Positions 867-54,568 of a stretch of DNA of 64,000 bases are shown here, one piece after another. Positions within the stretch are counted from its first letter, which is position 1. The number at the start of each line of letters is the position of its first letter. Source of the stretch: Octopus vulgaris (lineage: Eukaryota). The stretch lies in the NCBI GenBank assembly GCA_951406725.2, contig OX597824.1, forward strand, positions 66,030,001 through 66,094,000. Direction: 5' to 3'. Below the pieces are notes generated by a model that saw only the letters and a program-made list of their open reading frames with translations, did not search any database and was not told the DNA's origin. Position numbers and translations under genes: made by a program.

Positions 867-929
867 TCACCCAGCTTCTTGTTTACATTTATCAACAACA
901 GAAACTGGTGGCAATATTTTTTTGAAATC
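867..929 (-). CDS. SPATA17: SPATA17-like copy B exon 10 (DFKKILPPVSVVDKCKQEAG*)
   Basis: ctctctaactgtag acceptor, phase 0, TGA at 867-869; resembles the SPATA17 C-terminal DFQTVLP segment. Confidence 0.85.
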   Translation of the reverse strand, partial: DFKKILPPVSVVDKCKQEAG

Positions 930-3900
930 CTACAGTTAGAGAGAAATTGCTATTAACAGATTTGACTTGCTGAAATTTTAAAATTTACAGAGGGTGCGTG
1001 TATGCATGCAAGTGGGTGTATGAAGGTATGTGTTATGCATGATGTTTCTGAGTTTTGACCATTAGTGAAGCTCTTAATCATTCAGGATACTCACATTTGG
1101 GTAACATGACCTCTGGATATGATGATCATCATCATCACCATCATTTAACGTTTGTTTCCCATACTGGCATGAGTTGGACAGTTTAACAAGGGGCTGGCAA
1201 GCTGGAGAGCTGCACCAAGTTCCAAATTTCTGTTTTGGCATGATTCCTGTGGCTTGATGCCCTGCCTAATGCCAACCACTTTACAGAGTGTATTTTTACA
1301 TAATGCCAGCACAAGTGCTCTTTATGTGGTACCAGCACAGGTGCTTTTTACATCCATTCTTAGCAATATTTAATCAATTACATATAACAAACAAAACATG
1401 GATTTTATAAGCAGACACTTCCACCACATCGTTCCTATGAATATGTTTGCTTGCATATATGCACATCAGTGTATGTGTGTGTGTTATTGTCAGACCTCAA
1501 GGGACACTCTACTAAATCATCAATCAAACTACTGTCCACTGTATTGTTTTACAGGCATATGCTCTTGTCACTGACACTCATTTCTCATGACCTCTTATTG
1601 ACAAGGATAATGACAGCATCACTGATTCTAACGAGAATTTCAAGGAAGAGCAGATGTAAATAAGCATGCAGATACATGCATGAGCACACACACACACACA
1701 CACACACACACAATGGCCTTCTTTTCAGTGTCCATCTACCAAATCCACTTACAAGGCTTTGGTTAACCCAGGGCTATAGTAGAAGACAATTGTCCAATAT
1801 ATTACACAGTAGGACAAAACTTGAAACCACATCTTTGGGAATCATAAAGCCATCCATCCTAAAAGAAAAGACATTAGATAATATGATCCTAGATAAACTG
1901 TATCTGGAAACATAAAGGATGAATATCCATGGATGGAATGCTTTTTAGTCATAGATCTGCTTGATCAGAGTTCAACTGGGACTAAACCACAAGACAGGAG
2001 CAATAAACAGGTTTCTATTTTGTTGCTTGGCTTGACCAGCTACAAATAATTGCCAAATCTTAACACAAATCACACCTTACTGTCTTGTAGGTGAAGAAAC
2101 AAAAGAAAAATGTAGAAGTATGTTCTGCTAAAGAGACTATCTGGACGAAATGTTTCACAGCATTTCTTTGGTTTTATATTCTGAGTTTTGACTATAACTT
2201 CTGCTTGATCAAGGATAACATGGACTAAACAACCAACAACAGCAACAACTTGATGCTTCTTGACAGTAAATATTTCTCATGGCACTCCAACGGTTATGAC
2301 AAAGAGGGTTTCAGTTGATCCAATCAACGGAACAGCCTGCTCATGAAATTTACGTGCAAGTAGTTGAGCACTCCACAGACATGTGTACTTTTAACGTAGT
2401 TCTTGGGGAGATTCAGCATGACACAGAGTATGGCAAGGCTGGCCCTTCGAAATACAGGTACAACAAAAACAGGAAGAAAGAGTGAGAGAAAGTTGTGGTG
2501 AAAGGGTACAGCAGGGTTCGCCACCACCGGAGCCTTGTGGAACTTTAGGTGTTTTCACTCAATAAACACTCACAATCCAGGTCTGGGAATCTGGGAATCA
2601 AAACAAGTTTGCTGCCATTGTGCCTCCATAGTAAATATTTACACATAAGGGAACTAGATCATTCAGAATCAGCTTATCCCTGGACCATCATAGGTGAAAA
2701 AATTCAAAGGGTTATTGACCAGAAATTGGAAACTTCTGTACTCAGAAGCTGTAACTTTTGTTGTCTACTGCTGTCAACCCCATCACTCAACAACCTATTC
2801 ACCTATTTTATTGAACAACTTACCTTCTTTCCTGTGGACAAACAGGATTTATATTCCCTGAAGTTCAGTCTTCCATACACAGGGAGTTTATAGGGGGTAT
2901 CATTACAGATACGTGGTTCATACTTTGGTTCATCAACCTTGCTTGGTAAGCAACTGGAATGGTAAACAATTCTGGGTTAATTACACAAATACAGTAAACA
3001 AAGCTGGATTAATATAGCGTTACCGTATAAAGTGGAAATAGTTTATCTGCAAGGAATACTAGAGGTGACTAGCTGGAGTATACCGTACAGTTGAAGATGG
3101 TTAACGGGGTAGTTGGGTCACAGTTTACAATCAGAATGGGTTGTTAGATTTTAGTGTACAGGGAAATGGATTAGTATCTAGGTTTCAATGTGTAGTGGGT
3201 TAGTTGTTGAATACTTTATACAATGGGGGTGGGAAGGACTATACACGTAGTAGGTACTGCCAACTTTCTTACATGTCATAAAAATGAAGTCTACAAAACT
3301 CCGATTGGTCTCACATTTTACCCGTTTTATTTTACTGTTTCATTTTACCCAAAGTAGTAATGTTCTTTGGATTTACCTCACACAAATCTATCACCAGTAT
3401 CTTTCCTACATCAACAGTTGACTTCAGTCAATACTGGTAGAGTACAAAAAATCTGTATCAGTTTTAGAATGACACCCCTACGTAGCACAGTCAGTTATAC
3501 CAGCCTGAGTTACCTAGACCATTGAAAAACAAGTAAGTGTCTTGGGCATTGCAAAATGCTACTGACTACAAATGAGTCACCAATCTTTAAGCTATCCAGT
3601 ACCCATTGATTTGACTACCTGTAGATAACTCTCACAATTCATTTGGAGAAATTTGAGAAGTTTTGTGTAACAGAATTCCCTGAAAAGTATTGCACCTTGA
3701 ATTTAAATCCAACCAAAGTTATTAAAAAAATCCCTTTATAAAGACCTTATTGGACACAGTTACCTCATCAGTATATCAAAGATTATTGTAAGAAAGAAAA
3801 AGAAAAAATTATTTACAAATTTCCATAATGTTTCTGAGATAATTCTGTCTTAAACTTATTCCAAGCTTTAACCAGATGGTCAACATCTGTTTCAGTTTGT

Positions 3901-6900
3901 AGATTGGGATTTAAAGGCTTATAGCGCTTTCGCATCACTTGTTCGGGATTTAGGAATGGCCCCTGTTAACAAAGAAAGGCATGAAAATTAACAATAAATA
4001 GTAGATATTTCCAAGTTTTGTATTCAGTTAGAAACGTAATCTGTGTGTGTGTGTATTTGTGCATGTGTGTGTGCAATCATTGATTTTGGCTAAACATATT
4101 TGGAGTGATGGATGAAATGGTTGAGTGCCTAAAGTCTAGTACTTCTGTAACATGTATTAGATATCCAAATCTACTAAAAATGTTTCTTTGTGTTTGTAAC
4201 AGGATGAGAGGTCTATAACACTGGATGGGTGCAGCTTACATCTTTACATTAAAATATTAACCAAAGGAAAGAGTCAAGACTTCCGATTAATTTCAACAGC
4301 ATAAATATTTTATTTCTGAATTTGCAGTATATACATTCTTCTTTCAGGGCGAATCGGCAGCCCAGGAGCTCGTCGCAGTAGTCAAGTGGAGTGAGCCAAA
4401 TCCTGTCCGTTCAAGCATAGCATAGAAAATGCCACGAGGTAGCAGCTTGAGAGAGCTGCTAAAACACGACTGTCTTATTCGGCTGCCAGTGTTTGAGAGG
4501 TCAATACGAGGGAAAATTCCAGTTTCTGTGCAGGCGCATGAGGGAACTTCTGGCAGGCCGCCCGAAGGAATCCAACTCTGCGCATGCATGCTGAAGATTT
4601 CCAAGATGGCGTCACTACATGTTTTTAAACAGGAAATTTAATCCTACATTGCTTCTACAATTCTATATTCCTGAGATGAGAAACTTATATTATGTTTCTA
4701 TTAATATATTATGTTCCTGTTAGTTGGACTGGTGTCCTCATCTTGATTGTTACTCCCTTTACATTTTGGCTTTTCTACACTCCAGCCTTCTTCTTGTGTT
4801 GAATTTAGTTGTATCAGAATTCTGACACAACTGAGTTCAACAAAAGACACCTGAAGAAGGTTGGAGTGTACAAAAGCCAAAACGTAATGAAAGCAACAAT
4901 CAAGATGAGGACACCAGTCGGACTAATAGAAACAGTGTCTTTTGATTTGGTTTTACTTTTCAGGCCTTGGAAAGTCATATAGGAAGAAATCCCTTTCACT
5001 CAATTACCTATTAACTTTTATATTGTATATAACACCACTTTTGCATCATCAGAGATTGTGTCTTTGGGTTAGATTATATTCTTGACAATAATGCTTTCTT
5101 TTAAGTAGTTTGTAGAATTAAAAAAAGATTCAGTTGAATTATGATAAAAGCATTTATAAATGAGAGGTGCCATCCATTTCAAACAAGGCTAATACTAAGA
5201 TCAAAGAAATTAAAGTAAGCAGTATGTCTTTTGTTTTTGGTGTTGGTAAGGTGAGCTATTTCCAGCTTGTCAATTGACTGCATAGAGGCTCCTTCATTAG
5301 CTTATGGTGTGTGCACATGTGAGAGAGAGAGAGAGGGGGGTGGTGCTTGATTTTAAGTTGGGTAGCGTGAAAGATATAGGATGTGCCTTGCTTCATAGTG
5401 AAACATTGTAGCTATGAAAAGGAGGTTGGCATTTGATGCTCTTATTCTCAACAGCCACTCAAGTGTGAAATGATGTTTAGTTTACAGACAGTTAAACTGA
5501 AACAATTTGACAATGGCTCATAGAAGATTTCAGTGTGTAACCTTATTGTTTCCAGTGTGGAAAAATCAACTAATTTTATTTTCTAAACCGATTTAAACAG
5601 ATTGAGGTTTCATGAGGATATTGAACACTAAGTGTTCCAAGTGAACTCAAGATCTCTTGCAGAAGATATTCTGGAAAGGTTTCCTTCTACTTTTATAGTC
5701 CTCCCAAAAACTTGAGCTTTACTTGCAAGCTAACAAAAGTCTCATTAATTCAGTGATTTAAAGAATGATAGAATTAGTAACAGAAGGATAAGATAGTAGA
5801 TTAACAGAATGGACCTATAACTCTAATGGATCATTGGTACACCACTGAAGAGATCTGGTCAAAAGAAGAATATACAAGAATGATTTTTTTCATGCCTTCT
5901 TTAAGAACATCTACATTATGTCTTTTGCAGCATCAGTTTACTTGGAGGTGAACTGATGTTGCATAAGGCAAATGTTCATGGGCTTAGTGCCAATGACAGA
6001 ATATGAGCCATCAATCTTCCACTCACCAGTTCAACATGCTATCAACATAACCAACTTTAGATTAATTAGCTAATTTTTACTACTGTAGGCACAAGACCTG
6101 AAATTTCTGGAGAAGTAGCTAGTTGATTACATGAATCCCAGTGCTCAACTGGTACTTATTTTATTGACTCCAAAAGGATGAATGGTAAAGTTGACCTCAG
6201 CAGAATATGAACTTGGAATGTAAAGATAGATGAAATGCTACTAAGAATTTTGTCTGCATGCTAATGATTCAATCAACTTACTGCCTTATGATTAATTAAA
6301 AAGAATTTCTACCTGAGGCTTCTGAAGACCAGCTGATTTTTCCGAGACTAATTGTTCATATCCCTCATGGGTAATATCTGGTGGCTTTTTCCTAGGTTTT
6401 TTTCCAGTGAAGCACAAAGATTTCAGGAAATTCTCAGCTTCATGGTTCTGACTTACACAAAACAAATATTTTAGATATTTTCTATTAGGTAAGGAAACAG
6501 TGAAATGGAGTTTTTCATACACATAAATACAGACAAAATTTACATACATTTTTAAAGTTTTGGGTCGTCTGGGGCTCTTACTCTATTTGTTTGGATAGAT
6601 GATTTGATATCATATAGCTAAAAGTAGCATAACAAATAAGTTCACTCTCAAAACAATACAATGTTGACTGTAAACATGGAAACATGACAGCCCAGCAGAA
6701 TATATTGAAAATATATACTATCAAGTATATACAAACAAGTTATTTTTAATCAAATACCATTTAATCCTTTAGCATTCAGACTACACTGTCAAATGTAATG
6801 CTTGTTTGTTCACATTGTTCTGAATTAACCTCAAAGCTCTGAGATTTCAATGATGTGATTGTTTAATTTTAGAATGACATTGTAGGGTAGGTGTAAGAGG

Positions 6901-9900
6901 CTAGATCTGGTCAGTTTGAACATGACAGCAAGGTTTTCTGGAAATATGTGCACTCAAAGCAGAGACCTCACTCTCCAGTGGGCCCTCTTCGCAACCCTCA
7001 CACAAACCAGATCACTGACGACCCCAAGGAATGCGCAGAACTCATTGCCGAGTGCTATGCAAACATATTCACTGTTGAAAGTCAAAATGTACCATCTTCA
7101 CCATCACTAACAGCAAACTCCATAACAACTATGGAATTTACACCTGCAATGCTGCGACGTCACCTTCAAAATAAGCACAACTATGCCTCCCATGGTCTCG
7201 ATGGAGTTACATACCTGCTTCTCAAACGTGGCAGGCACTTCCTTTTACACCAGCTTTCTATTTTCTTCCAGTACTGTCTCAACAATGGTGCTACTCCGGA
7301 GCAGTGGAAAACTGCCAGTGTCATTCCTCTGTTCAAAAAGGGCGACCGCACATCACCTGTCAACTATCGCCCAGTCAGTCTCACTAGCTGTATTGCAAAA
7401 CTGATGGAATCGTGTGTCAGAGAAACACTCTGGAACTTCTGGAGCTCTCACAGTCTCATCCGACCCTCACAATATGGATTTGTCCCTAACTCCAGCTGCA
7501 GTGACCAGCTTGTCGAGTTCCTTGAGGACATTACTCAGATTACTGACAGTGGCTCATGGGTGGATGTTGTCTACCTTGACTTTGCTAAGGCTTTCAACTC
7601 TGTGCCACACAAAAGGCTTATGGTGAAACTCTCTGCAATGGGTGTGGGGGATGACCTTTTTAACTGGTTGAAATCCTTCATCCTCAGCCGAAAGGAGGTA
7701 GTCACAGTTCTAGGACAGCACTCTACACCATATGAGATGTCATCGGGTGTACCACAGGGATCTGTCCTTGGTCCCCTCTTGTTTGTGGCATACATTAACG
7801 ACATAGATGCCAATTTAAAGAATGCCACAGTATTGAAATATGCAGACGACATCAAGCTGTACCTTGAAATCAAGAGGACAGATCCTGATGTCTACAACTC
7901 TTTCCTGCAATCAGACCTAGACACAATGCAGCAATGGATCACAGACTGGCAACTGAAACTGGCTGTGGACAAGTGTACCACCATGCATTTTGGGAGAAAA
8001 AACCCTGCGTTCACATACTCCCTCCACAACACTGATATCAAGAAATCCTCTTGTGAGCGTGACCTAGGCATCACTGTCAGCAGTGATTTGCGTTGGTCAA
8101 AGCATATCTCTAAGATTGTCAGGAAGGCCGAGGGTGTCTTGGCATCACTCAGCAGGTCTTTTGTTAGCCGCTCTCCAGCCATCTATTTAAAACTGTATAC
8201 AGCTATGGTACGACCACACTTGGAATTCGCATCATCAGTTTGGAACCCCTATCTTGCACAGAACATTGACCTCCTGGAATCTGTCCAGAGACGTGCAACC
8301 AAACGCATACCCTCCATCAGACACCTACCATATTCTGAGCGCCTTGTTTCCCTGGGCATGGATTCACTGAAGCTCCGGCGTTTGGCGACGGACTTGGTAA
8401 ACACCCACAAAGTTATCAACCACCTCACCAACAACAACACTGAACACCTTTTTGATCTCCATGTGTCTAACACACGTGGACATGCCTACAAAGTCAGAAA
8501 ACAATACAGCTCCCATGACTTTCGGAAACATTTTTTCACGCTCAGAATTGCTGAAGCATGGAATAAACTGCCTGCGTCAGTTGTTGACTGCCATGACACT
8601 GCATCTTTTAAGGCCCTCATGCTTTCCGAAATCCGCCGAAACTACACCTGATTATATATACACTTTAGATGAGTTGTAGTGCACCTGAGCACTGTACACA
8701 ATTATTATTATTATTATTATTATTATTATAAAGCTGATAGGATATTTACGCCAAATATGGCTGGTTTAAATGCTAAGTTGTTGAACACCATCATCAACAT
8801 TTTTATGTCTACTTTTCCATGTGGCATGGGTTGGATGGGACTTTTTGGAGTAGTGTATTATGGAGAGATGACCGTTCTGATATCAACCTTCATAGCTACC
8901 TCTTACTACATGAATTAAAATTTTTGAAACAAAACTCCCTGTTAAAGACTAAGGAGTCATCCCCTGAAAACAGCACTCACTAATGGCAACTTTCTCACAG
9001 ACCTGATGAACCTATATTACTGAACTACCTCCACATATCAGCAATTTACTTACATTGGTACAATGCCATAAAATTGCAAGAGACAATGGATTATATCAGT
9101 TGTCTCTTCTCTTCCACATATATATTTGTGATCTGTTTTATTATCCCTTGAATGATAAATAGAAACATTAAAAATATCATAGGGGAAACTGAACTCTAAA
9201 TTTCCAACCATTCCACACGCTCTTAGAAAAGATACTCTGGAGTAGTTGACTCTTAATTATATTAACCCTTACAAGAACCTGAATTCAGTATTGAAAACTA
9301 ACAAAACTAATTCTGTGATTTACAATACACATTCACAGAAAGACAGAATTAGTTGAGCAGAATGATGAAAACTCTAACAGAATTAGAATTAATTCAAAAT
9401 ACAAAAAGTTAAAATCAAATATGCTCCACCACTTAACATGTTTTCCATGCTGTCAAGGGTTGGATGGTTTGACACGAGCAGGCAAGCTAGATGATTGTGT
9501 CATACTCCAATGTTTACTTTAGCATGGTTTCTGTGGCTCAGTGCCCTTCTTAATGCTAGCCAATTTGCAGAGTGTACAGGGTGCTTTTTTCTCATGGCAG
9601 CAGCATTAATGAAGTCACTCTGCAACTTGTAAGATAAAGAACCCCACAACTGAGTGATAGTATAACAGAGAGAATTTAATTGTGAATTTTATTATTGTAT
9701 AATCTCAGAATTTTGCAAATATTTTTGCAGTGCTAAACAAGCTTAGTTACCAAAATTGGGGGATAGTAATGGTCTATACTAGCAGAAATCAGTTAGTAAA
9801 TATACAATTGGGACAAGCATGTTTGATATGCAGTGAAAAAAAGTGGAAGTAAATATTTCAGGTGTGGCCTTTCAATGTTATGGGCTGCTCTGAGTTTGAA

Positions 9901-12900
9901 AGGGAATATTCCAAGATGTTTTACTACACAAAAGTTTATGAGATAGTGGTTAAATTTACAAAGTGTTCTCATCTGTTATTAACAGGTAACAATATGTGGA
10001 ATGAAATCTATTAACTGCCTTACCCGAATGGTGAATTATAAACACCAGGAATGACTGCTGTACTTATTAGATGATGTTTCTTATAAGCTTGAGTTTTCTG
10101 GACTTCTTTTTTATAATTCATGAGAATTTCTTTCTCAATATCACTCTTTTTCTTTACAAATTCAGTAATGTGTGTACTAAAATAAAATTAAAGAGACAAG
10201 ATTCCAGTAGTCAGATAGTCCTTCATGAACAACACACATCTAAAACCCTCAAGGTTACTACAAATCATTGATGTTTTTCAGTGATTTCGCATACAAAATA
10301 TAGCAAAACTGCATCACAAAAACTGAGCTCTCTTTTTCAAGCAGTGAAAATACTTGATGTGTTAACTTTTTACAATGGAGTATTGTTTCCATATCTGAAA
10401 CAGTGTTGTTGCTGCATATATAAACATTATAGACAGAGAAAAGGGAAAAACAATCCACCCAACTGAAATGTGCAGTAACACACAGAAATTCTGGTCCACA
10501 GCATATTGTCTTCTCACTGTCTTTCTATCACTGCCATAGTAGCCTCAGTTCTTTAGAGCTGGCTGGTCTCATACCACCTTCACCCAGGCCCAGGAATTAT
10601 TAAATTATTTTTGTGATGACTTATTCAGACAAGGGAGTGCAGTACATACAACCTTTTTTCAGGGCCTCTATGATTGGTAGAAGGAAGGGAGGAAAGGTAT
10701 TATTGTTAGGCCTGAACACTTGTAGCAGAGATGGACTTCACTGCAGTATTAAACTGGGCAACAAATGATATCTACTATCCAAGAACAGAAACAGTTTCCT
10801 TGATAGGTTTCCAAACAATTTTCTGCAACAAAATTTCTCTCATGTGCCATTGGTTGATCAAAAGCTATGATAATAGACACTTGACAAAGATGCCATCCAA
10901 TGAGATCAAACCTGAAACACTATATTTGTGAAGCAAACTTCTAGACTGCACAGAAATGCTCATTCCCATGGATATGCAATAAGAACAAATAGTAACCAGA
11001 ATAGAGGTAGCTGATAGTAGAAAGGCATAGAAATGTTCTAGCTTTATGATTGCATAATATTAATGGATAGAATTGTTGTTAAACACCAGGTCAGGTTTGA
11101 TCAAGCATGCAGACATACAACTAAGTAAATGCATTCAGGCTCCTTCATTGGATTGTGACAGAAGCTACAGGTAAGTCTATAAAACAGATCTAGATCACAA
11201 AAGACATATTAATAAAAATGATCAGAGAATCAGTCTACTTACAGATAGTAAGAATTCTTTTCAATAATCAACTTCAGTTGATCCTTACGCTTGTAGAAAT
11301 TTAGAATGTATTTCCGACTGTAATATCCTTTCCATACCTTCTGAATCTGTATGAGTAATATATATATATGCAAAGTTTAGGTTAGGTAACATAGGTTTGT
11401 GACATATTTCAGCTGCTAAAAGGCAAATTCACTGCAGTTACTGTAGAGGAAACTTTTCTTTTATAGTAAAAAGGTGTGAAAGCACCCTATCTGTTTAATG
11501 TCACCATCTATTAGAATTCCCAAACATCAATGTTTCTAGCTCATTGGCTTTTATCAATGGGAAGTACTTAAGAGAGGCAACTCTGAACAGATCTTATAAA
11601 ACAAGAGCTTCATGTAAAATACAGTCAACAACATTGACTGATTTGTGCTGGTAGATCACCAGATTGTGGAAATTACTGAAATATTCGCGCCAAACAGTAT
11701 TTAGGCAGAAGCAAAGTTTAGATTAGTTAGAAAATGTTTGTGACATATTTCAACTGTGAAAAGGCAAATTCACTGCAGTTAACATAGAGAAAATGTTTTT
11801 CTTATGGTAAAAGGTGTGGAAACACCCTATCTCTTCAGTGTCACCATCTATTAGGATTCCTGGACATTGATGTTTCTAGCTCAGATGCACTCACAGACAC
11901 ACATGCCCTAACATGACAAGCACCCACCCAATAAACCCTTTTCTACCCCCACCAATACAGGTACCTCTCCACACCCCATGCATACATGCCCCCAGAGAAT
12001 TTAACCAAAGTTTTAACTAAAACATAAACAAAAACACACAAACGAACACACAGATGCCTATGCAGCCTTTGGTACCCACCTTGGAAATGCTGCACATATA
12101 GTACCACTGCACACATTCTAGTTCTATAGGAAAACCAACTCTAAAACATACATTTTCCCATACACTCTTTTCCAGAAAACACTTGTTCCCTCACATCACA
12201 CCCAGAGATGATACTTTGGTGCCAAGGGACATAACTCTTAAATTAACCCTTGTTTGGTTCGTTTCATCATCTGTTACACAGCAACTACAAACCGGATGTG
12301 TCTGTTCACCTCCAACAATAGAGAGCAGTCTCCATATTTCATTCCATAACTGCTATCTCTGAAGAGTGCATAGTTGCATAATCAGGTTGTTACCTAATAC
12401 TCCATCGAACTTCACTCAAAACTGATTAGTAAGATTGGCCATAATAGATATATAATACTGTACACTTCAATTAATAAATACACACACACACGAGGATCAG
12501 CTGAAAAGTTCCTAGGTTGACTAAGACACTCTCATGGAATGTGAGGAAATGAGGTTTATTTTTCAACATAGTCCCAGCATAATTCCCCTCCACACATTTC
12601 TTCCATCAGTGTTGCAGTGCTTGGATTCCATTGGTGAAGATTTCATCTTGTTGTTTAGAAAGTCCTCTACAGCATATATGAGGTCATCATTACTATTATT
12701 CTGGTTCCCAGACAAGTGTTTTATCATGTTGGAGAACAGATGATAATCAGATGGGACCAAATCAGGAAGGGAGGTTAATCAATCAATTCAAAGCCACAGT
12801 CATGCACAGCAGCCATTGAAACGAAGATATGTGAAACAAGATCCCTTTAGTTAGTTTTGCTCAGCATTTAATCATGATAGCCGAAGAGGACTTCTGATGT

Positions 12901-24604: not shown

Positions 24605-25104
24605 TTTTCGTTATTAATTTCCCTGCGCTGACAAGAGGTTATGACACGGCCACCACTTCACACGATTAATTAAATGGGCAAAACCTCTTTTCCTTTCACT
24701 TTTCCTTAGTAATTTCTAACGAGGAATTCGTTGCGTTCAAATTTCAGAACGCACAACAATGTTAAGGTTTGTTACGAAGAGTGCGTTGATTTTTCTCTTT
24801 TTTTTTTTTTTTGTGTAAGTCTGTTTTGGAGCAGACGACTTCATTATTTGGTCATGCAAATACGAATAACTATATATCGTACAACACACCTCAACATCGT
24901 TGGCAGCACTCAAGAAATGGTATTGGCATACGAACTTTGTTTTTGCGGCCACCCTGTGACCTTGTCGACAGGGTGTTTTCTTTTTATATAAATAAGAGTA
25001 AGAAGAAGTGGGGGATCTTTTCCTTTTGAAGGCCAAAAGGAAAAGATCCGAAGTGGGGGATTCACAACCTTAGACTGAAAATTTTGGGGCGCTGGGAAAC
25101 CTCT

Positions 25105-25335
25105 TTAATGACTATTGAAGCGCGCCAGCACGCTTGCAGCGTTGCCGCGGGTGATGGCGAGGTTGATGCGCTGGAACAAGTGAGCGTCATCACGAGCTTC
25201 ACCAGATACCTCTTGAAGGCAAGCTACCAGAGAAGACAGGAATCACGCAGTCAGTGGTCCGACCCTACCAAACGTCTCGAATGCCACAGGATGGAAAATG
25301 TAGTTGACCGATAGATCGCGGCACTTTGTTGTTAA
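25105..25335 (-). mobile_element. CRE-like RLE non-LTR retrotransposon, C-terminal fragment
   Basis: Minus frame YIFHPVAFETFGRVGP...LFQRINLAITRGNAASVL* with one internal stop; resembles the CRE-clade C-terminal motif. Confidence 0.75.
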
Positions 25336-25574
25336 TCTTTAGTTCTACAAAGTTGTTTTATGAGGTAAAACAATATAAATTATTCAGATTTTTCATATGT
25401 AAAATATCAGAATATTTCATTTATTTATTTGAAGTAAAATAAGCGTAATTATTCGATTTTTTTTTTTTGTAAATCAGGCGTGAACAAAAAATGAGTTTCG
25501 ACGTTTAGCAGCTGACTTAATAGAATCCTACAAGATTAAACACAAACTTTGGCTATTTTTTGAAATTTAATATC

Positions 25575-25750
25575 TCTACTACTCGTCCCGTCGACATGCA
25601 TAAAAATCTAAAAACACCGTAGCACCCATGATTTCGGAAACATTTTTTCACACTCCAAATTGTCGAAGCATGGAATAAACTATGTGTCAGCTGTGTGTAC
25701 ACATGCACACGTATTCTTCAAATATTCTATGCTTCTGATATTCAACACTA
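25575..25750 (+). mobile_element. Old CR1 3' ORF fragment
   Basis: cccatgatttcggaaacattttttcac...gaagcatggaataaact matches the CR1 above. Confidence 0.7.
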
Positions 25751-34782: not shown

Positions 34783-34808
34783 TATATATGTATATATATA
34801 GTACTCAC

Positions 34809-34887
<79 letters not shown>

Positions 34888-34942
34888 TATATATATACAC
34901 ATACATATCTATCTGCCTGTCTGTCTATCTATCAATCTATCT

Positions 34943-34975
<33 letters not shown>

Positions 34976-35020
34976 CACACACATACACACACACACACAC
35001 ACATACATGCATACATACAT
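34783..35020. repeat. Compound (TA)/(CA)/(TC) microsatellite
   Basis: Direct inspection. Confidence 0.95.
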
Positions 35021-35808
35021 GGTCTGCTATAGAAGAGTTGTTCTTGTGCTGGTGCCACATAAAAAGCACTCGGTACTCTTTGTAAATAATGTTGTTAATA
35101 AGGGAATCCAACTAGAAACCATATCAAAGCAGACTTGGCACAGTCTGCTGACTCATCAGCTCCTGTCAAACTGTCCAATGAATGCAAGCATGGAAAATGG
35201 ATATTAAATGGTGATGATGATGATGATGATGATGATGAGATATATATAGACCAAAAGCAGGCAATACTTTTATTTTAGAGATTTATTAAAAAAACAAAAC
35301 AAAAACAAACTTTGAAATTTGTCATGTAATATTGTCTGTTAATAAAATAATATACAGTTAATAAAATAATTAGGAAAATACCAAATGTTGATTTAGCCAC
35401 AACTCAAAAATCTTAACAAATTCATTTAGGACTAATGAAAATCCAGAGCTGTGAAAAAGTATTATTTTTTATCTTAAATTATGTTTTAGTGCTATAAAAT
35501 TTTTCTTGTAACCTATGTACTATGTACTTATTCTATTCATAAAAAAATGTCCTTAACTGGATTAAATCCTAAATGTCAGCGATAAGTTGTAAATAACATT
35601 TATAATGGTTTGAACTTATTAACCTCATCTGCAGTGTTAAGAAAATCATCAATATTTTTGTCTTCATATTTTGATTGATTTGATCTTCAATCAGTATCTG
35701 GTGGTATTATTTTTAGATTTGTGCATAATCTCAGCAGATTTGAACAATTAGATACTTCTAAAAATCATAATCTGGATAAACCTGACCTAATGTGAGATAT
35801 TTGTGGAT

Positions 35809-35847
35809 TCAAGCATAGGAACTGTTTGATATGCATGACTTGAAGTC
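35809..35847 (-). CDS. SPATA17: SPATA17-like copy A exon 10 (DFKSCISNSSYA*)
   Basis: ttttatttttcag acceptor; starts DF like copy B; possible +1 frameshift near 35826. Confidence 0.78.
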   Translation of the reverse strand, partial: DFKSCISNSSYA

Positions 35848-44800: not shown

Positions 44801-47800
44801 ATGCTATTGAGTTAAGCAGCTTTGTATGCATTCACTGCATGCAGTACAAGGGGATGCTGTAAAGTCTCTGGATCTCAGTAAAAGAAAATATAGGAAGATC
44901 AGTTATGATTTTATTCAACATATTTCCCTTTCAGATTCACACACTTTTGCAGCAGTCCTTCACTTTTTCTAAGCCTTGTAAAAAAAAACTTGGAAGGCTG
45001 GGCTTCCTACTAGGCCTTATGTGATACCCTTAAAGCTAGAAACTTTTCAGCACCCCCTCATATGACTCATCATAGTAGAGGTGTGCACATGAACCTAAGC
45101 ACTTAGAAATAGCAACCTTGATATCTGATTCTCTATTCCCTTTAAGGTGAACAAAATTTTATTGATTTCACAGAAAAAGATACCCCTCTTGCCTCCAGTG
45201 TACACTCATTGGACCTTTATTGCATCTTTAGTGCCTTTTTTATTGTTATTTTGCAGTATTTCTGGAATACCACTACTGTGCACCAATTGAGTGCCTACAT
45301 TACAGTTATTGTTTATCTATTGCATTTTTTCTCTGGCATTGTTGCATCTCTGTTGCATTTCTGTTATATTTTCTTTGTACTTCTTTTCCTCCCGGTACAA
45401 TGTATTATCACTCCACTCACTCCACTACCACTTTGCCTCTATTATAACTCTAGGGTGTCTCTATTTACCTTTATTCATCTGTCTATCTGCCTTGGTCTGT
45501 CTGTCTGTCTCTCCCCGCTCTCTCTCTTTCTCTCTCTCTCTCTAGATAACAAAACACTCAATGACCATACTTACAAGACTATTTCATTTTTGCGACAAAC
45601 ATTTTCTAGGTAACACTTCCTCTTGTAGTAGTCAAATTTTTTCTTGCGACTCTGGTAACCTCTCCATGTCTTCTGAATCTGAAGAATGAAAAGATTTCAT
45701 CAATTTCTCATTAACCTTTTATCTCAATGGTGTAAGGGTAAACCAGTTTCCACCAGCCACTAAGAGTGAACTTAAACTTAGTGAATTTATTGCTACTTAA
45801 AAGTTTTCACCCTTCTAAACATTTCTAAATCTACATCTCAGAATCTTTTTAGGCCTTCCTCTCATGCTGATGAAAATGAGATTAATACAACCAATGAATG
45901 TTCAACCTGAATGTCTGCTGTTTGATGTCTGCAGGGTAAAAAGACATTGAGGGAACCAAGGTTCTGGTTCAGATGATTGCAGCATAGTGAACTTGTCTAA
46001 CTGCATCTAAAAGCCAAGGAGTGATGCTTAACAGGGCTGTGTGATAGGCTTATCATCCTAAGACTCATATTTGAAATTGGGGTGGGATGCAAATAGCTTG
46101 TAGTCAGTTTATAGAATTGATTCCAGTTTATTACTGGGCATAAGCACCTTACAGTAGAAAGTGAGCTTGTAGTTACTCTAGCCCTGCGTTTCTCATGTAT
46201 GCCAGGGGAAAATTTGACTGGGGTGAGTTGTGAGGATTCAAAAGTCATCATCATCATTTAATGTCTGCTTTCCATGCTGGCATGGCTTGGATAGTTTGAC
46301 AGGAAACCAGTGAGCTGTAGGGTTATGTCAAGCTCCAGTGTCATTTTTGGCATGGTTCCTGTGGCTGGATGTGCCAACCACATTAAAGAGTATGCTTTTT
46401 TCTTGTCACTGGCACTAGTGAGGTTGTCATGTAACTAGTAAGGCAAAAAAGAACAGGGGAAAAAAGGAAGGGAGAAAACTCCCACTACTAAGCAGAAGTA
46501 TTTTGGAGGGGAAGGTGGAGGTGAGTGGTTGTATCCCAGGTGTTGAAAGGCTAAAGTATGATAGAGAGACAAGTACAGGTGTCTTGCTACAGAGGCGATA
46601 CATGACTGAGGGAGATAAAAGGAAGGTAGTGATAGGATGCCAGAGCAAATTCCTAAGGTACAAGAAGGTGAGTATAAAAGATGACATGGACAGTGGAGTA
46701 ACGGGATGATGAAAGAATGGATGCTTTCATAAGAGTATGGGAGGTGGGGAGAGTAAACAGGTAGAGGTGGAAGTTAATGTAGTGAGTGATGAACTAGGGT
46801 GGGATGCAGATGATGGGAAATACCTGTATGTAGAGTGGTAAGACAGGAAAATAGGAGTGACTGAGGAAGGAGAATAGAACAGAAAGTTGTGGGATGATGT
46901 GCAAGGTGTAGGAACAGTGGGAAGGGAAATATAGAGATACATAAAGGGTACAGTAGGTGGGTCATGATAGTAGACATGAGAGGATATTGAAAATGATAGT
47001 AGATAAGTTAGGATGTTTAGAATGGAGCATAGCAGAGATGGGAGAAAGAAAGCAGTGGCTGAAGGCACAGAAAAGAGATGATTGGCAGAAATAGTGTGGG
47101 CAGGGATGATGAGGAATGGAAATAGTTCTGGGTGGGTGGGGGCCTGTTAGGGAGCCAATGGGATAAATTTTCATGAAAGAATTTACTGAGATGTGAATTT
47201 AGTGAAGTAGTTAAACAGAGCATATGATGGTCAGTGTGTGTGTGTGTGTGTGCATGTGCGCGCATGTGTGTGTGTGTACACATGCAAGGGTGCATGTGCA
47301 TGCTCAGTTGAGTTGTATGAGTGTGTGTGTAGCTGGCTAAGTTTACATAAAGTTTGGTGTGTAGAAGTTAAATTAGCACTTACCTTAGTAGCCATTGCTA
47401 TGTAATGTTCAATGCACATTTTCAGGAAAAAATCCTGTAAAAGTTGAAATGTTGGAAAAGTGAAACTTTACTCATTATTTTCGTCATTATAATCACATAT
47501 TGTCATCAACATCACTGCAACATATATTGACTGTCCATATTCAACAAAGCCTTAGAATAATCTAGAATAATGTATTAAAATTTCTTACTTTTTATAATGT
47601 TAGATCATTCATTAATGCAAATTAGAATTTGTCATACAATTTTATTTTTACTGAGTTTAAATGATTAAATCTAATGATTTTCTTCCTCATTTTAGTTGTA
47701 ATTTTAATTAATAAATTTTTTTTATTATCTACATTTATCATTCAACATATGATAGCCTCAATTTAACTGGGGGTTTTTTCATGCAGAAGACGTCCCTAGG

Positions 47801-50800
47801 TAACCTGTCCTCATCACAGTCACTGCTTTAAGTTGTCATGCCTATCAACGTTAATTTACTCAGCCGTTATCTAGGGTCTGGCAGTATTGATAAAGTCTAT
47901 GCTTTGCTGAAGAGCTCTAATAAGACTAAAACATGTCAGCAGTTGTCACTGTATTTGCTGAAGATTACACTCACTCCCCACTGCATACTTCAATTCTTTC
48001 TACTAAATCCTCCCACAATGCTTTAATCAGTGAAAGCAGAAGACAGAAGATACTTGTCTAAAATGCTTCTAACATGGGAGGCAAACTTTTTAACCACACA
48101 GCCATATATCATCATCATCATTTAATGTCCATTTTTCTCTGCTTGCATGGATCAGAAGGAATTACTTAGGGGTACATTTTCTACAGCTGGATGCCTTTCC
48201 TGTTGCCAGCCCTCAACTTTTTCCAAGCAAGGCAATATTCCCCGTGACCAGACATATTTTCACAGAAGATTGGAAATGAAAGATACTGCTGTGACTTTTG
48301 TTCACAACTATCACATGAAATCAAGGTAAGGAGACTGTAACATATACACCCATATATACATGTATGCATGAATGCATGCATACATAAATACGCTTCTTTC
48401 AGTTTCAATCTACCAGATTTACTCACAAGGCTTTGGTTGGCCAAAGGCTAGAGAAAGAGATGCTTGCCCAAAGTGCCACTCAGTGGGACTGAACTGGAGA
48501 ATCTGTGGTTAGAAAGTAGACTTGCACCTTTCATCATCATCATCTTCTGTTAATTTTAAAGGTTCTTTCAATTATATTAGATCATTATGATGTAATATAA
48601 TTATATTGTGAAACGCAAAACAGATTAACTTGTAATAAGTAAAGTAAACATTAACCTACTTAATGTGGTGAATATGATAATTTTGATATATTAAGACTAG
48701 TATTATGAAGAATTGTCGATCAAAAGTTAAGAATATCAAACTAATGCAAGGGAGACAACTCCAAATCGGAACTAATATTTTGGTGTTAAATTTAAATGTT
48801 CTGATGCATCCAGCAACGGGAAGAACAGTTTGGTATTTGATATAGTGACAATGCTACATACATTTTGGTCTTATTAAAACCTCTACAGTGAAGCCTAGTC
48901 ATTTACGTGTCTGTTAAATCAACACAGAGTAAATACATATTCTAGTATGACAACAAAATCTCATGGGAAAAATCCAGGGATATCATTTGTATGGAAGATA
49001 AATGCTAAAATCAGCAGTAACACACAATAAGTAGTACTTATTGTGATAAGTACTATTAACTTTAATCAAAACTTAACTCATCAATAAGAAGTAAACATGA
49101 TTGAACTACGATTCACTCAACCTGACGCAAGGGAGATAACTCAAAATAAAAGCAATATTACTTTAAAAACGAGTTGAAGAACCACTAGATTTTTTCCTAA
49201 TAATTAAAGTAGGACAATGGTAATGTGGATCTACATATAGTTGCATGACAAAAACCAAATGGGGGTACTAATTCCCATAATCCACTTGATCCTTGTAACA
49301 CCAATGTAAGACTTCTTCAGCAAATTTTTAGAGAATGTTTTGCATTATCAACTCTGTTCACACTATACCCAAATTAGGATTTGAATTAAATCTACAAATC
49401 TACTTAGGTTTAATTAATTGTTTAAGGCAATGAACTGTATTATTCATGGTACCTATTTACAGATGGATTATGTAATTTAAGATATGAGTATCTTGGGGAT
49501 GGATACACAATGATGTACTGGGATGTTAAATAAATTCCCTTTAGAGAGCAGTTCTCTATTCTGTCATGACTAAGTTGTCTCTCTCTCTCTGAAATTATAT
49601 AGAAAATGCCAGAAAAAGTATTGTAGGAATATATTTACCCAGGTGGATTTTTGGTAGTAAATACGTGCCATGTAGCCTTTCCAGTGTTTTTGTATGGTGA
49701 TTGCTGCATTGTTCATGAATCTTGATAGTCAGCAGAAAAAAACAAAAGGAAGATAGCAAAAGAGATATCTTGTTAAATAAATAGTAAATTAAGAAGACTT
49801 TTACAATTCTCAACATTTTTTTAGTCTTTCCCAGTCAGTATCACACTAATAGATACATAGAGTTGTTTTGTCTTTTTTTCTTTTTTTTTTTTTTTTGCTT
49901 GGAGGAAATAGAGATAGATTCTACAAAGGTGAATGTTTTTTGGACATAGTACTGTGATGTAGTCTAAAATAACAATAGCATCTTGTACATCAAAATAGTG
50001 ACAGAAAATTGACACAAGTGTGGCACCTTAGAAGAGAGCGAGTTGCAATAATAGTAGAGGAAAAACAGAGAATACAACATAATAGATGTTACTGTGTGTG
50101 TGTGAGAGAGAGAGAGAAAGAGAGAGAGAGAAGTGGGGTATTTTAATTATATTTTACAGCTTAGTCAAGACAAGGCTAGTGCTTTATGGCCTTTTTCTGG
50201 GCTTCCAAAACTTATGTCAGGAAAGGAGGAATTTATCCTTGGAGTGGAGATACGGCTCATCTGCTATCAACAAGGTGTACTCTACTGAAGGCACTTGACA
50301 GCCAGGTCATGGTGTTTAACCAGCAACAGATTAAATCTATCATACAAAAATAGGAACAGTCCTTCTGACAGGCCTCCACATAGTTTCTGTCACCCAAATT
50401 TCACTCCCAAGACTCTGTGTAAGATGCCATACAGTGGGATTGAGCCCCAAACCATGTGGTTAACAAGTGAACTTCTCAAACACAACACCATTCCTCAGAA
50501 TAGGAGGAACTTGATTAAAAAAAAGTTAACAAGAAAGACAGAGTCTGAAGAAAGAATTCTCCACTTACCTAAGATAAAATCTTGATCTTGCACCACGATA
50601 CCATGACTGGATTTTAACACTAGCAGAATATTCATAATTACGGTGTTTTTCTGCTTCACTGAATAAGAGATAGAGGAAGAGAGAGAAGAAAAATAATTAT
50701 AGTGCTCAGTATGATGGTTGTTGTTGAATAATTGCAGTCATCTCAGTGTAAATCTGATAGAAGTAGCTGATTAGATAATTGACTGAATCATTTGAACATC

Positions 50801-53278
50801 AAACAAAATGTCTAGCACTCTGTAATTATAGCACTTTATGTTCTGAGTTCAAATCTTGCCATGGTCAACTTTGCCTTTTGTCCCTTGTGGGTTTGGATAA
50901 AATAAAAAAGCTGCTAATACTGGTGATTGATTTAATGCTCGTATAACGTATCCTAAGTGTGAATGAAATTATAGAACATCTTTCATAGACATTTTTAAGT
51001 AAGAACACATGCACAAACATACATAAACAAAAAATTTAACTGGAACCAGGCAGCAGTATCCAGAAACATGAGAGGAGGAGCAGTGAACATCATGGAAGCT
51101 CCCTCATGAGAAGACATAGATTCCTTCTGGAGGAAAATCTGGAATGAAGAGAAAGTGTTTAACTAAGATGCTCTCTGGCTGGAAGAAATCCAAAGTTATT
51201 GCTCCTACGTTACACCCAAGACACAACATTGATGATGAAACTCTTGCAACTGTGATCCAGAAACTCCAGGATGGAAAAGCACCTGGAAGAAACTTAATTG
51301 TTGAATATTAGTACAAGAAGCTAAAATTCTACTGACCATATTTTATCAACCAGTACCAGCAAGTTCTCATTGGAAACAGTAGCATACCACACTGGTTAGC
51401 TCTGGCAGAGACAAAATTGATCCCCAAATGCAGAGCCTCCCACATGGCAAAAACTACCCTAACCCTAATTGAATGCCAGAACTTAATGTATAGGATATAT
51501 ACAGCATGCTTAAACCTCTTCCTTCAGGGCCATAGTGAAACCAATAACATCATCACAGCAGAACAAGTAGCTGGGAAGAAAGGGAGTCTGGAGATGTGCC
51601 AAGCAATTGTGAATAAACAAAACTGTGATGTCAGAGGTGTCAGAGCATAGGAGGAACCTAGTTTCAATGTAGCTAGACAACAAGAAAGCCTTTGATTCTG
51701 TTCCCAACTCACAGATGCCAGAAGCCCTTCAACTTGCTAAAGTTCCAGTGGACTTAGTCAAAGCCATAACTGACCTGACTTCATCGTTGGCCACCATCTT
51801 GAAATTAAACACAAAGAGTGACTGTATTATTACGGATAGAAAACAGTATCACAAAGACATATTCCAAAGGGACAGCCTCTCTGTGATGTTGTTTGTACTT
51901 TCTGTAAACCTCTTGTCATTCATATTATGGAAGCCTGAAGGATATCTCACAGGTTCATAAAGAAACAGAAATACCAAAATTACACACTGTTTCTTTGTGG
52001 ATGACTTGAAACTTTATACAAAGAATATGCATGAGATGAAAAAGAGCCTTGATCTAAGTAAAACATTCTCAAAGGATGTACGGTTGGAGTTTGGTCAGGA
52101 TAAATGTTGTTATATAGTTATAAAAAGGGGGAAAACTATAAACCAGGCTATTAATACCTCCATCAATGATTTGACTGTTTCCCCTAAATCTGATGAGGAA
52201 TGTTACAGGTATCTGGGAGTGGATAGAAGCATATCTTACAATGGCACCAGTAACAAAACACATGTCACTAAAGAATATTACAGTCAAATAAAGAAAATTT
52301 GGACATCAGAACTCTCTGTATTCAATAAAACAGTGGCCCACAGTGTGTTTGCAGTGCCAGTACTCATACCAGCATTTGGGCTGCTTGATGAGATCTGAAC
52401 CATTGATGTGAAACCCCGAGAAATACTAATTGCATTTGCAGTTCAGGAACAAGAAATATAAACCAAGTACCTGATGCGCAAAAGGGTTAGAGAATCAGGA
52501 AAAGCAGTAAAATGTGACAACAGATGCAAACTTTGTGGAGTTAATGCCAAAGACATCACCCACATCATAAGCAGTTGTCCGAAAATGTCATCATGATATT
52601 ATCTACCAACAAGACATGATGTTGTAGCTAGGACACTCTGTAATGAAATCTGTTGGAAGGATAAACCTGAGGATAAAGAAATAAGAAGCCACAGCATGGT
52701 AGAAGCCATAGCCCACTCATAATAAAAGCACAACAGACCTAATATAATGATTTGGGATAGAGAAGAGAAACTGTGCATTATTGTGGAAATTAGCTGCCCA
52801 GCGGATGTTAACATAAAACTGAAGATCAATGACAAAGAGAATACCTACGCTGAATCACTGAGAAATCTGCAGTTATCCAGATTACAAGTTCAGGTTTATA
52901 CCTGTAATTATTGGAGATCTGGGATATGTAACACACTGCCTAAACATCAATCTTGAGAAATTAGGCTTCGCAAAACCAGAAAGGAGAAAGCTAATTGGAA
53001 GACCACAGATCCAATCCATCACTGGAACTGAAAAAATCTGTAAAGCTTTCCAAAAGTTTATCATTTCAATATATATGAGCATGTCTTGATATGCAAGTAT
53101 ATGCATGAGAATACATGTATAAAGCAAAGCATACAAATCTGCATGCATACATACAAACAAACAAAAATACCCTGTTGTTGATGTTGAAATTCCAATGAAG
53201 GAGTCTTGAATCTAGGTTAGAAACCGGCTCTTTCTCTATTGGTAAGAAAGTTTGAAATAAAACTGAACACTGACATAC

Positions 53279-53314
<36 letters not shown>

Positions 53315-54568
53315 TAATATAAACCATGCACAATGCGCTACACATACACACACACCATTGCCTTTGGCGGCTATTTAATAATAGCAGTAACGTGATCATC
53401 TTCAGCAACGAAGCATGAACATATCAATGAGATGGTACCTATACTGACACACGATTGGCTAGAAATAGCAATCAAATTCTCCTTGAAATCATATGCAACC
53501 GTCTGAAAGAAAAGTTCTAGATATAGTATACTCCCCCCCCTCCCTAATTGGATGGTCTTAGCTGGACCAACTTTAATCATAGGTCTGTTGAATCAGGGCT
53601 GAATGGCTAAAGACGCATGTACATAGGCGGAGGTTGGCAGAACTGTAAGAATGTAGGACAAAACCTCTGCAGTGTGGTCCTTTACATACGGAGTTCAAAT
53701 CCTGTCTTTCATCATCCTGAAGTCAATAAAGTACCAATTAAGTAATGGAGTTTATTTAATATTCCTATAAGGTATCTTTGATATCAATAGAATTATAATA
53801 AAAGACAACTCTGAGCACCTTTTCAAACTCCACCCATCTAACACCCGTGGACATATTTACAAAGTCAGAAAACAGCACAGCTCCCATGACTTCAGGAAAC
53901 ATTTTTTCACGCTGAGAGTTGCTGAAGCATGGAACAAACTGCCGGCATCAGTTGTTAGTTGTCGGAGCACTGCATCCTTCAAAACTTCCATGCTTCCTGA
54001 GATTCGCCAACACTACACTTGATTTTCTCTCCTCCATACACACACAAGCATGTATCTGACTCATACATTGTTCGCTTTCCAGACATTTCTACATTACTGC
54101 ATGTACTTTATATGCACTTTCTGACAAGTTGTGGTGCACCTGAGCACTGTATACAATAATTTCATTATTATTATTATTTCCACACACACACACATTCATT
54201 CAATTAGGAAGCCTTTATGTAGTCACTTGATTTGTTAAAAATAGCAGTAAAATTTCGTTCAGATCACACCCTATCGCCTTAATAAGGGAGGAAACAACGA
54301 AATCTAAGACATACCTAAGAAAAAACTAAAATAAAATAAAGATAGAATTGATAGGACAGTCAAAGTGCAAACAACCTTTGGTCATAGGACCTCTGATGTA
54401 GGGTGACCTAGGGTTAAACACCAAACTATTCAAACTGACACAAACATTAACAGTTGTTGAAATCAACAGTGTGATTTAGCTGCTGGTTGGAACTTACTCT
54501 TTCTCTTTGTATATTTGTTGCACCAGTCGTTTATCAAAATTTTCGAATAAATGTACGAATTCCGTCAT
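35809..54568 (-). CDS. SPATA17: SPATA17-like IQ-motif protein, copy A (10 coding exons, ~333 aa, three IQ motifs)
   Basis: Exons 54498-54568, 50569-50658, 49639-49720, 47384-47434, 45575-45678, 41339-41494, 39788-39917, 37538-37686, 36873-37002, 35809-35847; total 1002 nt, open. Motifs VKIQSWYRG, IQKHWKGY, IQKTWRGY, GPFLDPANVQLQRYKPLKPTLRV. Confidence 0.92.
36143..36369. mobile_element. TTAA-flanked piggyBac-type MITE
   Basis: TTAA|CCCTTTAG...CTAAAGGG|TTAA. Confidence 0.8.
36873..37002 (-). CDS. SPATA17: SPATA17-like copy A exon 9 (FISAKNYPTKYQPLLH...YFRETNHKLFISDK)
   Basis: ttttccag/gtaaga sites; matches the SPATA17 KY.P.H..S.YG...FR....DK segment. Confidence 0.92.
37538..37686 (-). CDS. 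SPATA17: SPATA17-like copy A exon 8 (GPFLDPANVQLQRYKPLKPTLRVETSFDSLEKARKELKMEEW...)
   Basis: attcag/gtaagt sites; strong match to the SPATA17 GPF..QRY.PL.PTLRV..AR.EL..EEW block. Confidence 0.95.
39788..39917 (-). CDS. SPATA17: SPATA17-like copy A exon 7 (KSKQTEIYH...TLPPLPQKPQ)
   Basis: AAG acceptor is the only phase-2 option; gtaaga donor; LPP...QKPQ. Confidence 0.82.
41339..41494 (-). CDS. SPATA17: SPATA17-like copy A exon 6 (AKLDKFAKETKEIEE...FPGININTTC)
   Basis: gtacag/gtaagg sites; phase 2-2; charged coiled-coil-like segment. Confidence 0.85.
42938..43626 (+). mobile_element. CR1-clade LINE 3' fragment, near-identical to 8036-8728
   Basis: Same ORF end and (ATT)n tail; about 3 mismatches seen by eye; inserted in a (TA)n tract. 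Confidence 0.95.
44846..45062. mobile_element. Mariner-derived MITE (related partial copy at ~43880-44045)
   Basis: tacaaggggatgctgtaaagt...acttttcagcaccccctcata inverted ends flanked by TA. Confidence 0.65.
45575..45678 (-). CDS. SPATA17: SPATA17-like copy A exon 5 (IQ3: IQKTWRGYQSRKKKFDYYKRK...)
   Basis: ttcttcag/gtaagt sites; 104 nt. Confidence 0.93.
47384..47434 (-). CDS. SPATA17: SPATA17-like copy A exon 4 (DFFLKMCIEHYIAMATK)
   Basis: ttttacag/gtaagt sites; 51 nt. Confidence 0.9.
49639..49720 (-). CDS. SPATA17: SPATA17-like copy A exon 3 (IQ2: FMNNAAITIQKHWKGYMARIYYQKSTW)
   Basis: AAG acceptor, gtaaat donor; 82 nt. Confidence 0.9.
50569..50658 (-). CDS. SPATA17: SPATA17-like copy A exon 2 (IQ1: EAEKHRNYEYSASVKIQSWYRGARSRFYL)
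   Basis: ttattcag/gtaagt sites; 90 nt, phase 2-2; matches SPATA17 AAVKIQSWFRG. Confidence 0.93.
51035..53275 (+). mobile_element. Degenerate RLE-type non-LTR retrotransposon (R4/Dong-like)
   Basis: RT motifs KKAFDSVP, IFQRDSLS, FVDDLKLY, YRYLG; CCHC finger CKLCG..HIISSC; RHD and RPNIMIWD..E endonuclease motifs; stops and frameshifts; ends at (CATA)/(TA)n. Confidence 0.88.
53805..54178 (+). mobile_element. CR1 related-subfamily 3' end with a longer 3' UTR
   Basis: RGH..KVRKQHSSHDFRKHFFTLRVAEAWNKLP; same GTGCACCTGAGCAC terminus and ATT tail. Confidence 0.88.
54498..54568 (-). CDS. SPATA17: SPATA17-like copy A exon 1 (MTEFVHLFENFDKRLVQQIYKEK)
   Basis: agaATG start, gtaagt donor; 71 nt, phase 2; CpG-containing flank. 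Confidence 0.85.

Follow-up and report, generated by a model that had tools for sequence, protein, structure and literature searches.

A stretch of 64,000 nucleotides from Octopus vulgaris (NCBI GenBank assembly GCA_951406725.2, contig OX597824.1, positions 66,030,001 to 66,094,000 of the forward strand; here termed the window) carries two tandem SPATA17 genes on the minus strand, designated copy A and copy B. Both genes are intact, without internal stop codons. The two copies have lost conserved motifs reciprocally: IQ motif 1 (IQ1) is absent from B, while A lacks a HxLxST..PG.YNSP motif and the C-terminal tail. Both copies are SPATA17 by descent; neither shows the complete set of tested features that mark the canonical three-calmodulin rachis in the ciliary C1a projection. 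The reciprocal motif loss and a role in the C1a rachis were absent from the first-pass annotation of this DNA. The motif loss is the most informative feature of the locus.

The losses were assessed in 114 conserved alignment columns, i.e., columns kept in at least 78% of 18 non-cephalopod SPATA17 proteins. Copy A retains 82 of the 114 columns, copy B 69. In exon 2, which encodes IQ1, 11 of 13 conserved columns are kept in A, two in B and four in the protein of the cuttlefish Acanthosepion (Sepia) pharaonis, CAE1271379.1. In exon 6, the site of HxLxST..PG.YNSP, the corresponding numbers are five, 12 and 13 of 14. Columns kept in only one of the copies are arranged in 13 runs versus 22.7 expected (p = 0.0014, an optimistic value as neighbouring sites are not independent). 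This block-wise retention is independently mirrored by the search of the PDB. The match to FAP305 of Chlamydomonas is limited to residues 15-153 for A and to 53-177 for B, and spans 10-181 for P0002, an A-like protein. What speaks against reciprocity is the overall count: 52 columns are kept by both copies, 30 by A alone, 17 by B alone, and 15 by neither, which is no negative association (Fisher p = 0.39).

Three IQ motifs spaced by 23 and 36 residues are present in A. Copy B has two; it is without IQ motif 1 and is seven residues shorter there. A compensated frameshift as the origin of B exon 2 was considered but is not supported: one alternative frame looks IQ-like by eye, but the scores of the three frames were reached by 88, 112, and 166 of 1000 shuffles, against 0 of 1000 for A exon 2 as a control. 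The HxLxST..PG.YNSP motif at the helix end is defined from our own alignments and is not a published definition. It is conserved from Chlamydomonas to mouse, and its strict pattern is found in 106 of 127 near-full-length homologues. The third element, the C-terminal FK..PPIP.F tail of the animal members, has been frameshifted away in A; B keeps three of seven columns. In the +1 frame the last exon of A continues with 12 codons which resemble the tail of P0002 and P0010, and stops at the identical codon. Among 1,757 segments consisting of twelve codons plus stop (from 63,961 minus-strand segments in all), this remnant ranks first and is the only one at its score; its local profile score was reached by 24 of 1000 shuffles. 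The same short tail is common to three Octopus A proteins; thus the frameshift is not an assembly error.

P0002 and P0010, both A-like, have kept IQ1, the HxLxST motif, and the tail. Therefore, the losses of A look octopus-specific and later than those of B. Duplication-degeneration-complementation is a general model for gene duplicates. The octopus pair resembles it in that two copies are retained and conserved parts were lost reciprocally. It differs because the losses here look sequential, B first and A in octopus only, and complementation inside a single structure is only a candidate.

The gene models comprise ten exons per copy, all 18 introns are GT-AG, and the intron phases 2,2,0,0,2,2,0,2,0 are common to A and B. 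Exons 1, 3, 4, 5, and 9 are of equal length (71, 82, 51, 104, and 130 nt); all exon lengths are listed in the table. On these points the first-pass annotation was right, and its outer ends, 54568 and 867, are exact. Globally aligned, the two proteins share 108 of 322 residues (33.5%), with an alignment score of 403 compared to a maximum of 12 among 300 shuffles. The earlier count of 12 identities in 43 positions for exon 9 was reproduced; that for exon 8, given as 22/48, is 21/49 with the exon cut used here. The introns had been described as unalignable. In agreement, blastn between the two gene regions yielded 30 matches (E < 1e-3), the longest being a long interspersed nuclear element (LINE) copy, the others resembling dispersed repeats; no collinear intron homology was found among them. 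In a six-frame scan of the window IQ-like exons form two minus-strand clusters. A hidden Markov model built from the 18 non-cephalopod proteins and applied to all six frames of the window matched no exon more than twice, i.e., there is no third copy or remnant. The window is AT-rich (GC 36%), and both start codons lie inside CpG-rich stretches. Rfam gave no match in the window at gathering scores. At exon 7 both copies use the less common acceptor AAG (39918-39920 and 6452-6454, minus strand) in introns which are otherwise unalignable.

Is one of the copies a dying duplicate, or an artefact of annotation or assembly? The motif losses, the long branches and the partial O. vulgaris model of B with its different first exon could be read in this way. 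This is scarcely credible, because ten exons with open frames and canonical splice sites persist in each copy despite saturated synonymous sites, because full-length orthologues exist in independent assemblies of other species, and because the substitutions are strongly non-random. Between B and its O. bimaculoides orthologue, the first 126 residues differ at a single position and the remaining 209 at 35 (Fisher p = 6e-7); no change falls within the rewritten N-terminal 47 residues of B (p = 0.005). For A, five changes are in 133 residues and 20 in 200 (p = 0.035). The non-random pattern indicates that neither copy is decaying. The tandem pair is real, old, and, judged at the protein level, selectively kept. 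This bears out the earlier proposals of an old tandem duplication with both copies intact, and of retention under constraint, given the saturated synonymous sites and open frames, orthologues of 89-100% identity in three Octopus species, and the constrained N-terminus of B.

The family assignment of the first-pass annotation stands as well. With exon 8 of either copy as a query, Octopus proteins named SPATA17-like are retrieved. For both copies the closest matches over most of the length, in solved structures and among named proteins, are SPATA17/FAP305; the top ESM Atlas clusters for B are SPATA17 at 0.97, and in a 32-row tree A and B are nested among animal SPATA17. The QGPF..V..RYK..P.L block past the helix is present in exon 8 of both (20 of 23 conserved columns in A, 13 in B). 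Mouse SPATA17 (PDB 9ijj chain 3B), the C1a rachis of the sperm central apparatus, is matched over its full length (E 1.7e-46 for A, 8.6e-33 for B) and shares the IQ2-IQ3 spacing, the long helix, and the QGPF block. It differs in that all motifs reside in one chain to which three calmodulins are bound (PMC12297659); in octopus IQ1 is confined to A, and B alone has the HxLxST motif and the PP tail. With Chlamydomonas FAP305/MOT17 (PDB 7n6g, 7sqc) the N-terminal half is homologous (E about 1e-17 to 1e-18), the matches being limited to the segments given above.

Both genes are known by annotated name. Copy A is identical to O. vulgaris CAI9730385.1 (333/333), copy B to O. sinensis XP_036363322.1 (335/335); identities to O. 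bimaculoides are 92.5% for A and 89.3% for B. Cluster look-ups place each copy in O. sinensis, O. vulgaris, and O. bimaculoides, and in each of the three species the A and B orthologues are located on one chromosome-length contig. The O. vulgaris accessions CAI9730384/5/6 are adjacent. The NCBI entries for Octopus SPATA17-like proteins (XP_029643134.1, XP_036363322.1, XP_014784426.1, XP_014784434.1, CAI9730384.1-CAI9730386.1) represent the same two genes, but their names neither separate the paralogues nor record the motif losses. For B, the O. vulgaris entry CAI9730384.1 is an incomplete model which uses an alternative first exon (27584-27676, minus strand) and ends in intron 8. Isoform X1 of O. 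bimaculoides B has yet another first exon, without a match in the window. Copy B may have several 5' ends, or the divergent first exons may be model errors. A literature search for SPATA17 together with octopus, the accessions, or paralogs found no report on the Octopus pair; most subscription journals are outside its coverage. In the searched literature, the reciprocal motif loss, the IQ1 deletion shared with cuttlefish, and the fossil frameshift are new.

When did the duplication happen? At synonymous sites A and B have diverged to saturation: the proportion of synonymous differences (pS) is 0.74, and 10 of 33 four-fold sites are identical. Due to this saturation the nominal nonsynonymous and synonymous distances (dN 0.70, dS 3.3) are unusable. 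The first-pass annotation had allowed for a duplication shared across animals and already annotated. Annotated it is, in NCBI as SPATA17 or SPATA17-like, but an ancient pan-animal paralogy, with B joining non-molluscan outgroups, is rejected by the approximately unbiased (AU) test (p = 0.00017). In the 32-row tree A, B, CAE1271379.1, P0002, P0010, P0188, and P0020 constitute one cephalopod-type clade (support 100/99). When 1.84 billion cluster representatives were searched with B by phmmer, none of the best 150 of 583 matches was a full-length protein more similar to B than copy A is. The sole B-like fragment among these 150 is P0069, a B-type exon 6 fragment of 68 aa whose best-matching part shares about 85% of its residues with B; this implies that B has orthologues in one or more additional octopus-like genomes.

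The best tree groups A with P0002/P0010 and B with the cuttlefish protein in two builds, and a third build also joins B and cuttlefish; the 19-row builds exclude Brachionus, Priapulus, P0021, vertebrates, and several others. Internal branches are about 0.1 compared to stems of 0.8-1.8 changes per column (A 0.8-1.1, B 1.5-1.8), which in any resolution puts the duplication near the base of the cephalopod-type lineages. A further character is the spacing between the IQ2 Gln and a conserved Ala close to residue 26. Of 115 measurable rows, 111 have a spacing of 38 residues, two of these 111 being B models with other first exons. Two rows of the cuttlefish cluster have 31 residues, as does Octopus B by direct count. 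The sample comprised 127 near-full-length sequences of 207 proteins; 12 were without the anchor, including two main B rows shifted by the aligner. The seven-residue shortening common to B and cuttlefish favours a single early duplication. CAE1271379.1 is without IQ1, has the 31-residue spacing of B, and keeps the HxLxST motif, but it is only 32% identical to B and carries a C-terminal extension. It is likely orthologous to B.

Thus, we consider it probable that a single coleoid duplication occurred near the octopus/cuttlefish split. Several observations count against this date. The bootstrap for B plus cuttlefish is only 73-83, support inside the cephalopod-type clade is 64-86 with long branches meeting, as flagged by the tool, and the four cephalopod-type lineages are nearly unresolved across the three builds. 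Private shared residues favour no pairing (A with B 14, A with P0002/P0010 16, B with P0002/P0010 16, P0002/P0010 with cuttlefish 10, A with cuttlefish 8, B with cuttlefish 5). Both copies have been shown together in Octopus species only. The duplication could then have taken place within the octopod line, with IQ1 lost separately in the cuttlefish protein. An octopus-only clade of A and B is not rejected (AU p = 0.40), it would account for the 14 residues private to A and B, and exon 2 of B and that of the cuttlefish protein are little alike beyond length. Nevertheless we regard an octopod-only duplication as somewhat unlikely, because the identical shortening occurs in no other measurable row and is accompanied by a common exon 3 start, because B pairs with the cuttlefish protein in the best trees of three builds, and because the cryptic tail stop of A is at the same codon as in P0002/P0010.

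In mouse sperm, SPATA17 forms the rachis of the C1a projection; it extends from C1 protofilament 3 and binds SPAG6 and three calmodulins (PMC12297659; 10.1101/2024.08.06.606614). Chlamydomonas FAP305 has the same rachis role with a 16 nm repeat, which sits within a 32-nm lattice (PMC9113940, for the lattice the legend of Extended Data Fig. 4). C1a passes mechanical feedback on to the radial spokes (PMC9113940; PMC7999657; PMC11949450; 10.1101/2025.05.29.656921). We infer that three IQ motifs equal three calmodulin sites. AlphaFold indicates one long helix per copy, residues 2-171 in A and 33-164 in B, with a predicted local distance difference test (pLDDT) of 66-95 there, followed in both by low-confidence segments; the predicted template modelling score (pTM) is below 0.3. 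This is expected for a stalk folded alone. Foldseek with the low-pTM model of B returned no match at E <= 0.001. The basic charge is kept, with isoelectric points of 9.6-9.7 for A and B compared to 9.8 for Patella.

Copy A is predicted to bind three calmodulins and to lack the post-helix motif and the tail; copy B is predicted to bind two calmodulins on a stalk seven residues shorter with post-helix motif and tail. The events might be envisaged as follows. One tandem duplication took place around the octopus/cuttlefish split. B would have lost IQ1 early, and its new N-terminus would then have come under constraint. Afterwards A would have lost the HxLxST..PG.YNSP motif and the C-terminal tail, in the octopus line only. 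Judging from the mouse and Chlamydomonas structures, one calmodulin site fewer may alter the calcium response or the stiffness of the C1a arm which feeds back to the radial spokes. That A and B are specialised stalks of the C1a projection, divided between different cilia, is a proposal for which we see an even chance on the basis of sequence. Sperm-limited paralogues generally evolve faster, and by this analogy one may guess that B, the faster-evolving copy, is biased towards sperm and that somatic or sensory cilia use A. The division into sperm and somatic-cilia forms raised in the first-pass annotation is plausible. A point against the proposal is that the consulted passages on the C1a structures describe no role for the motifs lost from A. 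As to expression, SPATA17 is not mentioned in the main text or one supplement of an O. sinensis gonad study (PMC11202624), nor in three supplements of PMC9712504, as far as these sources were covered.

The two proteins might instead share an axoneme, alternating within the 32-nm repeat or otherwise covering each other's lost parts. The reciprocity of the losses would fit, as would a 16-nm rachis repeat inside a 32-nm lattice (PMC9113940), and A lost algae-to-mouse motifs only in the lineage in which B retains them. However, each C1a arm is organised by one rachis molecule, and a neighbour does not obviously supply the missing part. Furthermore, the A-like P0002 and P0010 keep all motifs, i.e., B was not originally retained to complement A. 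A shared axoneme thus appears unlikely. Still less probable is that one copy left C1a and now acts as a calmodulin-binding scaffold at another ciliary site or in spermatids, the other being the sole rachis. The long stems of both copies, the N-terminus of B, rewritten yet invariant between species, and the absence from A of a motif so widely retained would be compatible with such a new role. Yet the spacing of IQ2 and IQ3, the basic charge, and the QGPF..RYKP block are preserved in both copies, as is, by prediction, the long helix.

The neighbourhood contains another cilium gene, CMIP6 (ciliary microtubule inner protein 6; Pfam PF15667, E 6.9e-8, above cut-off), head-to-head with copy A and about 4 kb from its start. 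Between A and CMIP6 an imperfect long inverted repeat (about 57785-57865 and 58003-58090), identified by eye, flanks telomere-like CCCTAA units; it is probably a non-autonomous DNA element. Further CCCTAA-like runs are near 23000-23040 and 56500-56540. Two LINE copies, 6897-8726 (+) in B intron 6 and 42938-43630 (+) in A intron 5, are 99.4% identical over 693 nt and hence point to a recently active element; the copy in B has an open reverse-transcriptase frame of 584 codons (RVT_1, E 1.6e-37). An older LINE fragment is at 53771-54022. A intron 1 harbours a broken reverse-transcriptase remnant of another element without long terminal repeats (51336-52398, +; weak RVT_1, E 4.4e-6, below cut-off). 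In B intron 1, 18416-18895 (minus strand) resembles what we take to be a decayed mariner-type transposase, with no Pfam match at E 0.01. A segment of B intron 7 (4340-4640) is richer in GC and CpG and has a promoter- or small-RNA-like look on the plus strand, with no match in Rfam or Pfam.

Table 1. Positions of the SPATA17 copies, their exons, and CMIP6 in the window.
Feature	Position	Strand	Remarks
SPATA17 copy A	35809..54568	-	333 aa in 10 exons; three IQ motifs; without HxLxST motif and C-terminal tail
A exon 1, 71 nt, CpG-rich stretch	54498..54568	-	holds ATG of A (54568)
A exon 2, 90 nt, intact IQ1	50569..50658	-	Pfam IQ E 0.0018, 18.4 bits, slightly below 20.3 cut-off; 11/13 conserved columns
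A exon 3, 82 nt, IQ2	49639..49720	-	Pfam IQ 31.8 bits
A exon 4, 51 nt	47384..47434	-	gene model
A exon 5, 104 nt, IQ3	45575..45678	-	gene model and Pfam
A exon 6, 156 nt, HxLxST..PG.YNSP decayed	41339..41494	-	5/14 conserved columns
A exon 7, 130 nt	39788..39917	-	gene model
A exon 8, 149 nt, QGPF..RYKP.LRV block	37538..37686	-	20/23 conserved columns
A exon 9, 130 nt	36873..37002	-	gene model
A exon 10 coding part, 39 nt, frameshifted tail	35809..35847	-	gene model and tail profile
Out-of-frame remnant of ancestral C-terminal 12 codons plus stop, copy A	35787..35825	-	segment scan and shuffles
SPATA17 copy B	867..24604	-	335 aa in 10 exons; two IQ motifs; HxLxST motif present
B exon 1, 71 nt, CpG-rich stretch (24001-26000)	24534..24604	-	gene model
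B exon 2, 69 nt (21 nt below A), IQ1 lost	17633..17701	-	no Pfam IQ match; 2/13 conserved columns; zero changes vs O. bimaculoides
B exon 3, 82 nt, IQ2	15618..15699	-	Pfam IQ 34.1 bits
B exon 4, 51 nt	13947..13997	-	gene model
B exon 5, 104 nt, IQ3	11243..11346	-	16/21 conserved columns; exon alone without Pfam match
B exon 6, 153 nt, intact HHLIST..PGVYNSP	10024..10176	-	12/14 conserved columns
B exon 7, 139 nt	6313..6451	-	gene model
B exon 8, 146 nt	3817..3962	-	13/23 conserved columns
B exon 9, 130 nt	2824..2953	-	gene model
B exon 10, 63 nt, in-frame LPP tail	867..929	-	stop at 867; tail-profile score reached by 0/1000 shuffles
CMIP6 putative exon 1	58510-58571	+	read from sequence
CMIP6 exon 2	63104-63513	+	Pfam PF15667

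The duplication itself is an ordinary event, and both genes are already in the NCBI annotation. The question on which the pair bears is how calcium and calmodulin on the central-pair projections shape the ciliary beat. Three calmodulins are located on the SPATA17 stalk, and the structures do not show their individual roles. Octopus has two naturally selected stalk variants, one without IQ1 and one without post-helix motif and tail. Tentatively, we suggest that coleoids at their origin split the C1a rachis into three- and two-calmodulin isoforms, unlike the all-in-one chain of the algal and mouse structures, and that octopuses then made both indispensable to each other through the deletion from A of parts still present in B. 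Such a pair would tune calcium control, in sperm versus sensory or epidermal cilia, or would alternate along one central pair. If true, the coleoid isoforms would amount to a natural series of domain deletions in the C1a arm, and if one copy belongs to sperm and the other to somatic or sensory cilia, they would provide a handle on which part of the stalk serves which beat.

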